Of a stretch of DNA of 64,000 bases, positions 6,163 through 24,440 are shown in pieces. The translations under genes and the position numbers were made by a program. Positions within the stretch are counted from its first letter, which is position 1; every line of letters starts with the position of its first letter. Origin of the DNA: Escherichia coli (GTDB lineage: Bacteria > Pseudomonadota > Gammaproteobacteria > Enterobacterales > Enterobacteriaceae); assembly GCF_003334785.1 (NCBI RefSeq), contig NZ_QOWV01000018.1, one strand, 5' to 3'. Under the pieces are notes generated by a model. The model saw only the letters and a list, made by a program, of their open reading frames with translations, ran no database searches and had not been told where the DNA came from.

Positions 6163-6630
6163 ATGTCTGCCGTACTGACCGCTGAACAAGCCCTGAAATT
6201 AGTGGGTGAGATGTTTGTTTATCACATGCCATTTAACCGCGCATTGGGGATGGAACTGGAGCGTTACGAAAAAGAGTTCGCACAGCTGGCCTTTAAAAAT
6301 CAGCCAATGATGGTGGGCAACTGGGCGCAAAGCATTTTGCACGGCGGGGTCATTGCGTCGGCGCTGGATGTCGCCGCCGGTCTGGTGTGCGTGGGAAGTA
6401 CCTTAACCCGCCACGAAACCATCAGTGAAGATGAACTACGCCAGCGGCTATCGCGGATGGGGACCATTGATCTTCGCGTTGATTATCTGCGCCCAGGCAG
6501 GGGCGAGCGTTTTACTGCTACTAGTAGCCTGTTGCGTGCAGGCAATAAAGTCGCCGTCGCCCGCGTTGAATTACACAATGAAGAACAGCTTTATATTGCC
6601 AGTGCCACCGCCACCTATATGGTAGGTTGA
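6163..6630 (+). CDS. yigI: PaaI/YigI-family hotdog-fold thioesterase
   Basis: Track ORF 6145-6630; canonical start at internal Met (MSAVLTAEQ...) gives 155 aa. Confidence 0.85.
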
Positions 6631-6681
6631 AGACATAAAAGCAGGTAAACTGCTGTTACCAATTAAAAATGAGTATTCCCG

Positions 6682-7572
6682 ATGGATGCAAAACAAACGC
6701 GGCAGGGCGTATTACTCGCTCTTGCCGCTTATTTTATTTGGGGTATAGCGCCAGCGTACTTCAAGTTGATTTACTACGTGCCCGCCGATGAAATCCTGAC
6801 GCATCGCGTGATCTGGTCGTTTTTCTTTATGGTGGTGCTGATGAGCATTTGCCGCCAGTGGTCCTATTTAAAAACGCTGATTCAGACGCCACAGAAAATT
6901 TTTATGCTGGCAGTCTCTGCCGTGCTGATTGGTGGCAACTGGCTACTGTTTATCTGGGCGGTGAACAATCACCATATGCTGGAAGCGAGCCTTGGTTACT
7001 TTATTAACCCGCTGGTGAACATTGTGCTGGGGATGATTTTCCTCGGCGAGCGATTCCGCCGGATGCAATGGCTGGCGGTGATTCTGGCGATATGTGGCGT
7101 GTTAGTCCAGCTGTGGACTTTTGGTTCGCTACCTATTATCGCGCTGGGACTGGCATTTAGTTTTGCCTTCTACGGTCTGGTACGCAAGAAGATTGCCGTT
7201 GAAGCGCAAACCGGCATGTTAATCGAAACCATGTGGCTGCTGCCCGTGGCGGCAATTTACCTGTTTGCTATTGCCGACAGCTCAACCAGCCATATGGGGC
7301 AAAACCCGATGTCGCTGAATTTACTGCTGATCGCCGCCGGTATTGTCACTACCGTACCGCTGTTGTGTTTTACCGCCGCTGCCACGCGCTTGCGTCTCTC
7401 AACGTTAGGCTTTTTCCAGTACATTGGCCCGACGCTGATGTTCCTGCTGGCTGTGACGTTTTATGGTGAAAAACCGGGTGCCGATAAGATGGTGACTTTC
7501 GCCTTTATTTGGGTGGCGCTGGCAATTTTTGTGATGGATGCGATTTATACGCAGCGTAGAACGTCCAAATAA
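6682..7572 (+). CDS. rarD: EamA/DMT-family transporter RarD
   Basis: 296 aa polytopic membrane ORF; K-12 synteny. Confidence 0.9.
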   Translation: MDAKQTRQGVLLALAAYFIWGIAPAYFKLIYYVPADEILTHRVIWSFFFMVVLMSICRQWSYLKTLIQTPQKIFMLAVSAVLIGGNWLLFIWAVNNHHMLEASLGYFINPLVNIVLGMIFLGERFRRMQWLAVILAICGVLVQLWTFGSLPIIALGLAFSFAFYGLVRKKIAVEAQTGMLIETMWLLPVAAIYLFAIADSSTSHMGQNPMSLNLLLIAAGIVTTVPLLCFTAAATRLRLSTLGFFQYIGPTLMFLLAVTFYGEKPGADKMVTFAFIWVALAIFVMDAIYTQRRTSK

Positions 7573-7666
7573 AAAATAAATATATTCTGAAAAAATATGC
7601 CGACTCTTGCATGAGAGTGGGCATATTGCCATGCTGACCGGAGACTCATACAAGGATGTAAAATTT

Positions 7667-8047
7667 ATGTTACGTATATTTATCCCAACATCTAACGGTA
7701 AGATTTCCAGACGTCGTTATATATTTTCATTTATTTTAATAAATTTCATTTTTGCCTTTCTTATTATCTTTTTTAACGATGGAGAAGCAGGCTTTCTTGT
7801 TATAGTCTCTACCATCGTACTCCATTATCTCGTCATCAACATGAATTGCCAGCGACTCCGTGATAGTGGTTTCATCTATATAAAAACTTATGTTTTTGGT
7901 ACATTAGCAGTATATATCATCTCTATCATCACAATGATAGCCGAAGATTTTGCCTGTTCAGGCAATGGTTCGATGATTTTTTTGATTTGTTATTTTTCCA
8001 CTTTCAGTATGCTAATGCTTGCACCTACTGATTCATCAAAACAATAG
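7667..8047 (+). CDS. yigG: small inner membrane protein YigG
   Basis: Track ORF 7607-8047 starts at TTG; internal ATG at 7667 is preceded by AAGGA and gives 126 aa; very AT-rich hydrophobic ORF. Confidence 0.6.
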
Positions 8048-8060
8048 TTATGGAGTATTT

Positions 8061-8441
8061 ATGAGTAAGGAATATATGAACGATGGTTCATTAAGTGAAA
8101 AATGGAAATACCGATTTAATTTTTATGATCAACATGGTTTTCCTGGATTCTGGGGGGCAACACCAGAATATAAAGCAGCATTTAAAGCATTAAAAGTAAG
8201 ACAACGCTTAACTATTCAAATGAATTTCATTGCTTTCTTCTGTTCCTGGATATATTTATTTGTCCTGGGGTTATGGAAAAAAGCAATTATAGTTCTATTA
8301 CTTGGTATTCTATCTCTATTTGTTGGTGCACTAATTGGCGTTAACATTCTGGGAATTGCCGTAGCAGCCTATGTTGCTGTTAACACGAACAAATGGTTCT
8401 ATGAGAAAGAGGTAAAAGGGTTAAATACCTGGAGCCTTTGA
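8061..8441 (+). CDS. yigF: small membrane protein YigF (DUF2628-like)
   Basis: Track ORF 8019-8441; internal start MSKEYMNDG gives 126 aa; AT-rich, two predicted TM segments. Confidence 0.6.
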   Translation: MSKEYMNDGSLSEKWKYRFNFYDQHGFPGFWGATPEYKAAFKALKVRQRLTIQMNFIAFFCSWIYLFVLGLWKKAIIVLLLGILSLFVGALIGVNILGIAVAAYVAVNTNKWFYEKEVKGLNTWSL

Positions 8442-8483
8442 ATAACAGGTGGCTTAGCCAGACTAAGCCACCGCTCTCGTTTT

Positions 8484-9434
8484 TTACAACCAGTTCTTCC
8501 GCTTAAAGTACAGATACGGTGCCAGGCCCGCGAGGATCATAAAGATAATCGCGCCAGGGTAGCCGAAGCTCCACTTCAGTTCTGGCATAAACTCAAAGTT
8601 CATGCCATAGCTGGAAGCAACGAGCGTCGGCGGCAGGAATACCACGGATACCACCGAGAAGATTTTGATGATGCGGTTCTGCTCGATGTTGATAAAACCC
8701 ATTGCCGCCTGCATCAGGAAGTTCACCTTCTGGAACAGGGATTCGTTATGCGGCAGCAGGGATTCGATATCTCGCAGGATTTCACGCGCCTGCTCCAGTT
8801 GCCCACCCGGTAAACGCGCTTTACGCACCAGGAAGTTGAGCGCGCGCTGGGTATCCATCAGACACAGGCGAACTTTCCAGCCGATATCTTCCAGTTCCGC
8901 CAGAGTGGAGAGCGCCTCGTCGTACTCATCGCCCTGATGCCCTTCCATAATCACCCGGCTCAACTGCTCCAGGTCGCTATAGATATTTTCAATTTCATCT
9001 GCCAACTGTTCGATTTTGGTTTCGAACAGATCCAGCAGCAACTCGTAGGCGTTACCGTCTACCATCGACTGGCTACGGGCACGCATACGATACAGACGAA
9101 AAGCGGGCAGTTCACGCTCACGCAGAGTAAACAGACGACCATCACGGATGGTAAATGCCACAGTGGAGTTACCGGCGTGATCTTCCGCATCTTCAAAGAA
9201 GAAGAAGGAGTGAATATGCAGGCCGTCGTCGTCTTCAAAGAAACGTGCCGATGCTTCGATGTCTTCCAGTTCCGGGCGGGTTGCCAGGCTCTGGCCAAGT
9301 TCAGATTGTACGCGCAGTCGCTCGTCGTCGTCCGGTTCGACAAGATCAATCCATACTGCATTTACAAGGGGTTGTGACTCTTCGACTTCCAGCCGGGTCA
9401 GTCGGTTATTTTCCAGTTGAAATGCGCTCAGCAT
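8484..9434 (-). CDS. corA: magnesium/cobalt transport protein CorA
   Basis: Canonical start MLSAFQ gives 316 aa; C-terminal YGMNF motif present. Confidence 0.95.
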
Positions 9435-9803
9435 GACCGGGACTCCCAATGCTTAAAATATCGGACAGTTCGGTGGGCACACAGAAACAAATTGGGTTTC
9501 AGACCATTAAACAGCCTGACTCAGCGCGACGGGAAAAATTGAGGTCGCTGACAACCGCTAAGGCTATCAGCAAAAAGGGATAGCCTTAGGAGTTGATCCT
9601 GGATGACAGGATAGTGAGCCAGTATCTACTGGGTGTGTCCAAGGCGAATGTCCTCTTAGAGTGATCGTGCGCGCATGTTACGCCAGCAAAATTTTGCCGT
9701 CAACACGCAACAGAACACCACAGAACAATAGTTGAACTTCGCGCTTTTTGGTACTCGTCAAGGTCGCTAACAGGATAAAAAAATCCCACATCCAGGACCT
9801 ATA

Positions 9804-16338: not shown

Positions 16339-16800
16339 TATGGATTGCCTGTAAAGTTCATCGCTTTCTGCTTTCTATCATCGCAGGAGAAGACGTAAAA
16401 GCAAGCGTTTAGCGACTCTTTATGAAGTCTGAAAAGTGAGGAAATGCTGCGAGTATAACGCTTACTCGTGGGGATTTATGTTTTGCTGGTAGTTTCGTGA
16501 TCGGCACCTCGCGCCAGGATGGCTTTATGCACTATCGCAATGTGGTTTGTTTGTTGTCTTTTTTAGTTCCGTCAGCGTGAGGATGCTCGCTCGGTAAACC
16601 TGATCATAATGTTTACCAGAAACAGGGAAAGACGTGGTGTAACTGCGCCCTAATGAAGAGACAAATCTTTCGCTACACAGAGACATCATTATTCCGGTGA
16701 CGGATGAATCGTGCCGGAACGCAGCCGCAGAGGTGCAAACTTTGAAGCCCTGACCCCATGCCGCTATACTGCCGCCATCACTTAAAAACAGGATACAACA

Positions 16801-24233: not shown

Positions 24234-24440
24234 AAAAAAACGCCTGCTCTTATTACGGAGCAGGCGTTAAAACAGGTCTGTATGACAACAAGTGGGTGCT
24301 TCACTCAACGTTGTGTCCATGGTGTCTGATGAGGCATAAGCGACATCTGTCAGTGGACGATAAGCACCGTAAACGGCTCTGCGTCATTCCGGAGTTTATG
24401 AGGCACTAAGGCGAACATAAGAGATGGAATGAGCATCTAC
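24234..24440 (-). ncRNA. glmZ: small regulatory RNA GlmZ (SraJ/RyiA), activator of glmS translation
   Basis: Reverse complement of 24234-24440 reads GTAGATGCTCATTCCATCTCTTATGTTCGCC ... AACGCCTGCTCCGTAATAAGAGCAGGCGTTTTTTT, matching my recollection of GlmZ including its intrinsic terminator; lies in the hemY-aslA intergenic region. Confidence 0.88.

Follow-up and report, generated by a model that had tools for sequence, protein, structure and literature searches.

Introduction

The small genes yigG and yigF lie between rarD and corA in the window studied here, a 64 kb stretch of Escherichia coli DNA, and together they form one of the 78 'promoter islands' described by Shavkunov et al. Indeed, yigF/yigG (island id 4000528_663) is the example shown in Figure 1 of that work, where the PlatProm and Hertz-Stormo predictions give a high promoter density. 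The island was classed as foreign by two predictors, and it is bound by H-NS in every chromatin immunoprecipitation study compiled in Table 1 of the same paper (PMC3661553). An intragenic promoter in yigG, in the sense orientation, is one of six model promoters that are repressed by H-NS and depend on AT-tracts (PMC7229825). Genomic systematic evolution of ligands by exponential enrichment (SELEX) with RpoD gave a holoenzyme-binding peak between yigG and yigF (PMC3946193). Furthermore, in high-resolution in vivo protein occupancy display (IPOD-HR), yigF-yigG-rarD is covered by a small domain of extended protein occupancy in which transcription is low (PMC8282354, Fig 7C). An earlier note on this DNA, made from the letters of the sequence, had described the segment as probably H-NS-silenced, and in this it agrees with the published data (PMC3661553, PMC7229825, PMC8282354); the agreement is one with the literature.

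A second described system occupies the same chromosomal site in other strains. Experiments have identified the DUF3289 (YPO3983-family) and DUF943 proteins as a cell-wall toxin of the colicin M-like type and the matching immunity protein, and they are proposed to be a type VI secretion system effector-immunity pair (PMC11148199; PMC12469244). In Salmonella, yigG responds to chlorine stress, and its deletion causes sensitivity to chlorine stress together with modestly less attachment to plastic, spinach, and tomato; the gene is reported missing from serovar Enteritidis (PMC3579871).

That yigF-yigG is AT-rich, H-NS-coated, and predicted to be foreign is thus already published, and the interpretation in the earlier note is essentially the published view. 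What we add are the empty sites, the multi-allelic slot, the signatures of recombination, the purifying selection, and a GC content at third codon positions (GC3) that does not ameliorate; these additions are partly new and unsurprising. We suggest, with a probability of roughly 0.8, that yigGF is an accessory, H-NS-silenced, AT-rich cassette of two genes for small inner-membrane proteins, and that it occupies a multi-allelic recombination slot. This is a genomic and regulatory account of the locus.

Results

The window is E. coli K-12-like, with 100% identity to BW25113 over positions 7400-8600 and 99.95% over the 64 kb, where a few indels separate the two. The K-12 spacer between rarD and corA is 917 nucleotides (nt) long with a GC content of 0.34. 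The GC content of the 869 nt from 7573 to 8441 is 0.339, compared with 0.524 for the whole window. Among all 869-nt windows in the 64 kb (mean 0.524, standard deviation 0.036), this is the minimum, about 5 standard deviations below, and the runner-up, at 24271, has a GC content of 0.413. A cumulative-GC break analysis puts the edges of the AT-rich segment at about 7523 and 8445. The GC3 values of yigG and yigF, 0.315 and 0.283, are the lowest among 53 regional genes (mean of the rest 0.586, standard deviation 0.055, minimum 0.434), and compare with 0.62 for rarD and 0.625 for corA. The two genes also have the lowest local codon-adaptation index of the 53 (0.51 vs 0.683, standard deviation 0.053) and the highest content of rare codons, 10-13.5% vs 2.9%. 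The low GC of yigG and yigF sits in synonymous sites, beyond what amino-acid content alone would give.

The earlier note had described the segment as far more AT-rich than its flanks and as encoding two small proteins of about 126 amino acids (aa) each. Both descriptions are correct: the segment is the lowest 869-nt stretch, its GC3 is about half that of the flanks, and yigG and yigF are tandem open reading frames (ORFs) of 126 aa each on the + strand. When windowed GC and codon adaptation are computed, both genes are the most deviant of the 53, far from indistinguishable from their neighbors. The TTG start given for yigG is indeed that of the mechanical ORF call (7607, 146 aa), but the likely true start is the ATG at 7667, because RefSeq and the cross-genus alignment agree on it. 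The ORF that starts at TTG passes through a conserved hairpin, and its extra residues vary between genera.

Junctions of 80 species-representative Enterobacterales genomes were fetched by using CorA as an anchor, and RarD, YigG, YigF, and the alternative proteins were located in them by tblastn (coordinates preceded by an L number refer to individual junction records). The convergent order of rarD and corA is kept in all 80 species, with RarD 65-100% and CorA 88-99% identical. In about 43 of the 80, the junction is empty, with a spacer of 47-140 bp; these taxa include Citrobacter, Enterobacter, Klebsiella oxytoca, Kluyvera, Trabulsiella, Cedecea, Hafnia, Yersinia, and Erwinia. One Escherichia genome (L009) is also empty, having only the rarD stop, a hairpin, and the corA stop within 55 bp. 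An intact yigG and yigF pair, in the same order and orientation, is present at 12 of the 80 junctions, in about seven genera. The taxa with yigGF are Escherichia spp., E. albertii, Superficieibacter, Atlantibacter, Pseudescherichia, Phytobacter, Kosakonia with related 'Enterobacter', and Mangrovibacter, and the pair is also found in Salmonella Senftenberg and in a metagenomic contig. At these occupied junctions, identity to the K-12 proteins falls from 99% to 34% for YigF and down to about 20-30% for YigG, while RarD is 81-100% and CorA 91-99% identical. Every occupied yigGF spacer is AT-richer than its surroundings, with a GC content of 0.34-0.45 vs 0.50-0.57.

Other genes use the same slot elsewhere. 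Serratia, Pantoea, Pectobacterium, Dickeya, and Edwardsiella have a GC-normal AbrB-duplication membrane protein (e.g., L057:8050-9120), and Franconibacter, Pluralibacter, and some Citrobacter have a GC-normal pair of desaturase-like and PhnD-like genes (e.g., L031:7990-9760). The few remaining junctions have short spacers with no recognizable cassette, or lie at a contig edge. In Atlantibacter subterranea (L025:9605-10086) and 'Enterobacter' sp. E76 (L005:5429-5910), yigGF and DUF3289/DUF943 stand in tandem, separated by 3' fragments of corA and rarD (corA' and rarD'), which share about 95% identity with the resident genes. These fragments, together with the tandem cassettes, show that two junction alleles were joined by recombination in the flanks. 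In 'Enterobacter' sp. E76, yigG is frameshifted. The description of the segment as an insert in core synteny is borne out by the conserved rarD and corA, the approximately 43 empty junctions of 80, and the patchy distribution within E. coli; presence and absence at the rarD-corA junction do not follow universal conservation with vertical phylogeny.

Alleles within the species were counted in 5,426 complete E. coli genomes. The K-12-type insert is found in 2,408 of them. A deeply divergent yigGF allele, with YigG 76% and YigF 70% identical to K-12, is found in 565, and 556 of these 565 are at least 99% identical to one another. Thus, a yigGF-type cassette is present in 2,973 genomes (about 55%). 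The DUF3289/DUF943 pair occupies the junction in 2,624 genomes (about 48%), and 1,431 of the DUF3289/DUF943 genomes, O157 and others, have an extra AT-rich module upstream. In E. coli TUM18530 (L001:1717-2786; the same in O157:H7), the extra module contains a membrane ORF of 99 aa on the - strand (104 aa in the mechanical call), a DUF805-like ORF of 128 aa (L001 2229-2615, +) that is absent from the RefSeq annotation, and a 147-bp duplicate of the 3' end of corA. The rarD gene next to the extra module loses its last codons (295 aa).

The breakpoints of these alleles are sharp. Homology of the K-12 junction to the alternative E. coli alleles stops on the left at 7561 or 7753 and on the right at exactly 8484. 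The DUF3289/DUF943 allele of STO_Bone2 (L002:6484-7820), for which the right breakpoint is exactly the corA stop codon, retains the region upstream of yigG together with roughly 87 nt from the start of the gene, and has a deletion of 38 nt. This 5' remnant of yigG indicates that the DUF3289/DUF943 allele replaced a yigGF cassette in Escherichia.

Nei-Gojobori estimates were used for synonymous divergence (dS) and for the ratio of nonsynonymous to synonymous divergence (dN/dS). The dN/dS is 0.13-0.40 for yigG and 0.02-0.24 for yigF vs 0.01-0.11 for the flanks, and both are real genes under purifying selection. The dS of the cassette does not follow that of the flanks. Between K-12 and the divergent E. 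coli allele, it is 0.70-1.25 in the cassette and 0.11-0.17 in the flanks; between K-12 and the metagenomic enterobacterial contig, it is 0.29-0.44 in the cassette and 0.94-1.18 in the flanks. The yigF genes of the divergent E. coli allele (L003:1768-2543) and of E. albertii (L008:7994-8374) are 99.5% identical, with dS = 0.014, while the adjacent corA of the same pair gives dS = 0.30. The transfer between the species was therefore recent and limited to the cassette. The cassette can also be mosaic, since Superficieibacter YigF is 83% but YigG only 45-46% identical to K-12. The discord between cassette and flank dS, which goes in both directions, rejects simple vertical descent and indicates old allelic lineages with recent exchange.

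The comparison of K-12 with Salmonella Senftenberg (L094:3027-3881) gives dS of 1.6-1.7, which is saturated, for the cassette and 0.67-1.29 for the flanks. These values are of the same order and so fit a long residence. Nevertheless, GC3 is 0.28-0.34 in both the E. coli and the Salmonella cassettes vs 0.62-0.66 in the flanks. Since synonymous sites have turned over fully with no shift toward the GC of the host, the AT-richness is a maintained property rather than a leftover from recent entry. The earlier note had inferred an ancient acquisition from the compositional break. The age is supported by the presence of the pair at the same junction in eight genera, with YigF identity down to 34%, but the site is an exchange hotspot with recent transfers rather than that of a single old insertion. 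Similarly, the break is real, but GC3 stays at about 0.3 despite saturated dS, and the low GC is not a trace of entry that is wearing off. Our homologue searches point to no AT-rich donor lineage for yigGF, and the nearest YigF relatives outside the family are proteins of GC-rich Pseudomonas with about 45% identity.

A search of the cassette and the junction for an integrase, a transposase, a tRNA, or an att-like site found none, and the segment holds only the two membrane-protein ORFs. There are also no terminal direct or inverted repeats and no target duplication around the cassette. YigF matches occur in several PLSDB 'plasmid' records, from Salmonella Senftenberg (141 kb), E. coli (94 kb), and Kosakonia cowanii (97 kb). 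The Senftenberg record, NZ_LN868946.1 'plasmid 4', which is the one inspected, carries the chromosomal order recQ-pldA-yigI-rarD-yigGF-corA-uvrD, and looks like a mislabeled piece of chromosome, or possibly an F-prime-like capture. We do not count these records as plasmid carriage of yigGF, as the 'plasmid' matches in E. coli and Salmonella show a chromosomal neighborhood. Phage carriage is likewise not counted; the two 'phage' records with yigF are unannotated fragments of 1.6-3.5 kb. Many Salmonella draft contigs terminate within yigF.

YigG scores 255.6 bits against the NCBIfam YigG equivalog NF008474 (PRK11371; cut-off 217), and YigG of the divergent E. coli allele is slightly under the cut-off, at 210.4 bits. 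As a single sequence, K-12 YigG matches Pfam DUF805 (PF05656) weakly, with E = 0.023. Among its orthologues, 3 of 13 match DUF805 at E<=0.001 and 9 of 13 at E<=0.1. DUF805 proteins have two family motifs: an N-terminal segment of the GR..R..Y type, and R-x-R/H-D-x-G in the loop that joins helices 2 and 3. YigG has the DUF805 layout and an invariant RxRDxG loop, and the residues invariant in the cross-genus alignment are R15, R63, R65, D66, G68, and P120. In the reverse direction, a YigG-family profile pulls out classical DUF805 proteins with E values of 1e-8 to 1e-4, for example, one (P0188) with GRLSRLQYF and KRCHDIGWSGWW. When the YigG profile was run by HMMER against 1.84 billion cluster representatives, only 61 matched at E<=1e-3, and the close ones among them are enterobacterial. 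The AlphaFold2 model of YigG (predicted local distance difference test, pLDDT, 89.8) is a four-helix bundle, with helices at residues 15-38, 42-66, 72-92, and 100-118. YigG is, judging from profiles and predicted fold, a divergent DUF805 four-helix inner-membrane protein. The K/R-rich segments at the N-terminus and at residues 60-73 suggest, by the positive-inside rule, that the N-terminus, the C-terminus, and the 60-73 loop would face the cytoplasm.

YigF matches Pfam DUF2628 (PF10947) with E = 5.2e-10 over residues 17-117 of 126, and the RefSeq annotation agrees. The hydropathy profile shows a basic N-terminal region of about 50-53 residues, followed by a hydrophobic C-terminal half with helices. 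K14, W15, R18, F19, and an LGLWKK motif are invariant in the cross-genus alignment, and the AlphaFold2 model has a pLDDT of 89.1 and a predicted template modeling score of 0.81. The yigG stop is 13 nt from yigF, and GGAG is found 6 nt upstream of the yigF ATG. Because of this short gap, with yigF having its own Shine-Dalgarno sequence, the two genes appear to form an operon. The idea that YigG and YigF are distant paralogues was ruled out (hhalign probability 1%), and their two families are unrelated.

Searches of the PDB with the YigG and YigF profiles gave only chance-level matches, to SemiSWEET (E = 0.011) and a signal peptidase subunit (E = 0.4), and no solved relatives of either protein were found by sequence or fold. 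YigG, YigF, and the proteins of the alternative cassettes had no match to defense-system models in a PADLOC scan (E<=0.1) and no match in PHROGs.

The cassette edges both contain hairpins (Table 1). The one at the left edge has a folding energy of -20.5 kcal/mol on the + strand (z = -4.0) and -17.9 kcal/mol on the - strand. We read it as a leftward terminator, because a T run follows the stem (UUUUUU in the transcript) on the - strand only. Salmonella keeps the stem by changes on both sides, from ACUCUU/GAGAGU to CCCCUU/GGGGGG. This hairpin probably terminates antisense transcripts that leave the cassette toward rarD. The right-edge hairpin was picked up by the terminator scan on both strands (-17.5 kcal/mol, z = -3.7). 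We infer that the cassette is transcriptionally insulated from its convergent neighbors, which would fit the published spurious promoters in AT-rich DNA. The window contains exact matches, at 7818-7843 and 7943-7967, to the primer sequences published for the 'yigG 1.2' promoter fragment (PMC7229825).

Table 1. Positions of the rarD/corA junction features in the window.
Feature	Position	Strand	Basis
rarD, EamA-family transporter; left flank and left recombination arm	6682..7572	+	ORF, annotation
Variable segment separating the stop codons of rarD and corA; the entire K-12 AT-rich cassette	7573..8483	.	
Left-edge hairpin, putative intrinsic terminator for leftward (antisense) transcripts	7594..7627	.	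fold, cross-genus conservation
yigG, predicted 126-aa four-helix inner-membrane protein, divergent DUF805 member	7667..8047	+	
'yigG 1.2', H-NS-repressed intragenic promoter fragment, upstream of yigF	7818..7967	+	published primers (PMC7229825)
yigF, 126-aa DUF2628 membrane protein	8061..8441	+	
Right-edge GC-rich hairpin, candidate bidirectional terminator common to the yigF and corA 3' ends	8448..8472	.	terminator scan
corA, Mg2+/Co2+ channel; right flank and right recombination arm	8484..9434	-	ORF, annotation

The neighboring genes in the window are pldA, yigI, rarD, corA, yigE, and uvrD. An 18-codon leader ORF, ysgD (YsgD/CorL family), lies upstream of corA at 9586-9642 (-). E. coli, Salmonella, and Superficieibacter all have it annotated, which gives the junction a conserved regulatory leader on its corA side. 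In the window, the aslA-hemY intergenic region ranks second in AT-richness (GC 0.413), and it contains the GlmZ small RNA gene at 24234-24440 (-; Rfam, 218 bits). Two annotated pseudogenes were also seen in the window: a frameshifted PemK/MazF-family toxin gene beside ppiC and rep (50412-50860), and a fragment of a DKNYY-family gene beside cyaY (16497-16675).

Discussion

The reading that we prefer is as follows. The AT-rich yigGF DNA is coated by H-NS and essentially silent in K-12, as shown in the literature, and the edge hairpins probably prevent antisense read-through of stray transcripts into rarD and corA. Homologous recombination within the flanks, which are highly conserved, would both spread the cassette and replace it. 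The states of the slot are empty, K-12-type yigGF, E. albertii-type yigGF, and DUF3289/DUF943 with or without the further DUF805-like module. Since the exchange is mediated by the flanks, with no mobility genes or repeats, the junction behaves as a multi-allelic slot. The low GC may be kept either by selection for silencing or by local mutation bias.

Several observations weigh against this account, or against parts of it. The H-NS binding and silencing of yigGF are taken from published papers. A simple sigma-70 consensus scan of 6600-9600 found 2 sites vs 5.3 expected, both of them in the cassette and on the - strand; this scanner is much cruder than PlatProm or Hertz-Stormo, and the published promoter density was not reproduced with it. 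The allele counts in E. coli exceed 5,426 by 171, so some genomes must carry two cassette types. The databases contain many shortened YigF and YigG variants, which implies that the cassette is often dispensable. No YigG-like or DUF805-like neighbor was found beside the distant DUF2628 genes of Pseudomonas and Pantoea megaplasmids, which makes the pairing a particular feature of the junction cassette in enterobacteria. A physical interaction of YigG with YigF is inferred solely from their conserved adjacency. Finally, the yigG phenotypes in Salmonella are of modest size and were only partially complemented, and they differ between the two serovars (PMC3579871).

The company that yigGF keeps raises the question of whether it is itself a competition cassette, consisting of orphan immunity proteins or of a small membrane toxin and its immunity partner, in a slot that swaps such modules. 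The slot would then be dedicated to interbacterial competition, yigGF would be an unrecognized immunity or toxin-immunity pair, its AT-richness would be selected so that H-NS silences it until it is needed, and its alleles would be under frequency-dependent selection. The slot is shared with a demonstrated toxin-immunity pair, DUF3289/DUF943, in 2,624 of the 5,426 E. coli genomes; O157-type strains put a DUF805-like ORF and the 99-aa membrane ORF right beside that pair, and in Atlantibacter it is in tandem with yigGF. Deep alleles within a species together with recent exchange across species are typical of frequency-dependent selection. Immunity to pore-forming colicins is also conferred by small polytopic proteins of the inner membrane. 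We nevertheless consider both the dedicated slot and a competition role for yigGF unlikely. PADLOC gives no match, no toxin-like gene, VgrG, PAAR, or Hcp adjoins yigGF in the window, and the dN/dS is well under 1. DUF805 and DUF2628 are not in the supplementary effector-immunity tables of PMC11148199. Furthermore, the shared site may just mean a permissive insertion point, as GC-normal AbrB-type and desaturase-like genes use the slot elsewhere.

The remaining explanations are less compatible with the data. Native core genes, inherited vertically, could be AT-rich because of hydrophobic residues and low expression: YigG and YigF are rich in Ile, Phe, and Leu, which have AT-rich codons, and both E. 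coli and Salmonella have the pair at this site, diverged roughly as much as the flanks. This is very unlikely, since GC3, which is independent of amino-acid content, is 0.28-0.32 vs 0.62 in the flanks, and the adjacent membrane-protein gene rarD has a normal GC3. In addition, the junction is empty in most Enterobacterales and in one Escherichia genome, only about 55% of E. coli genomes have the cassette, and the dS of cassette and flanks differ up to 20-fold. In favor of the ORFs being non-functional remnants decaying in inert H-NS-bound DNA, a mere 'promoter island', are the silence under laboratory conditions (PMC8282354), many truncated or frameshifted variants such as yigG of 'Enterobacter' sp. 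E76, IS1 insertions in some strains, and frequent replacement of the whole cassette. However, dN/dS of 0.02-0.40 across saturated synonymous distances, both ORFs intact in 12 species at 34-99% identity with invariant motifs, confident AlphaFold2 models, and the published Salmonella deletion phenotypes make decay extremely unlikely. A remnant of a self-mobile element (an insertion sequence, transposon, integron cassette, or prophage fragment) is hardly conceivable. It would explain the compositional break and the patchy distribution, and yigF is present in the two short 'phage' records; yet there is no integrase or transposase, PHROG match, terminal repeat, tRNA, or att-like site, and the 'plasmid' matches in E. 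coli and Salmonella look chromosomal by their neighborhood.

What is the function of YigG and YigF? Because purifying selection acts on both genes and their pairing holds across eight genera or more, they most likely act together in the inner membrane. Our best guess, and a tentative one, is a membrane or envelope function that might be used outside laboratory conditions, which would be consistent with the published Salmonella yigG deletion phenotypes. The site shared with a validated toxin-immunity pair also provides a cheap, testable lead on their function. Apart from function, the rarD/corA slot is a clean small example of cassette swapping through conserved flanks with no mobility genes. 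With GC3 at about 0.3 despite saturation, it is a compact test case for whether the AT-richness of silenced genes is maintained or has not yet ameliorated.

Comparison with known systems

Among known systems, the H-NS-bound promoter islands (Shavkunov/Ozoline; Grainger lab; Freddolino lab) differ in no way in kind from yigGF, which is literally one of them. With respect to the protein families, YigF is a clear member of DUF2628 (PF10947). YigG resembles DUF805 (PF05656; YhaH and YhaI in E. coli) in its layout, the RxRDxG loop, and profile homology, but it appears to be a very small divergent offshoot, with 61 matches among 1.84 billion representatives and a single-sequence E of 0.023. These memberships explain little, because neither parent family has a known function.

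The DUF3289/DUF943 cassette is like yigGF in that it uses the same slot, has two genes, is AT-rich (GC 0.325), and is exchanged through the same flanks. It is unlike yigGF in being unrelated in sequence and in encoding a soluble toxin of 282 aa with an immunity protein of 163 aa. Of the two cassettes, DUF3289/DUF943 is the one for which toxicity and neutralization have been demonstrated. The slot as a whole is most like the recombination hotspots between core genes, with which it shares conserved flanks, several unrelated occupants, empty alleles, the absence of mobility genes, and fragments of the flanking genes. We searched the literature for a named integration hotspot at rarD/corA and found nothing relevant. 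The rarD/corA slot differs from such hotspots in being very small, with cassettes of 0.9-3 kb, and in holding mostly AT-rich genes for small membrane proteins.

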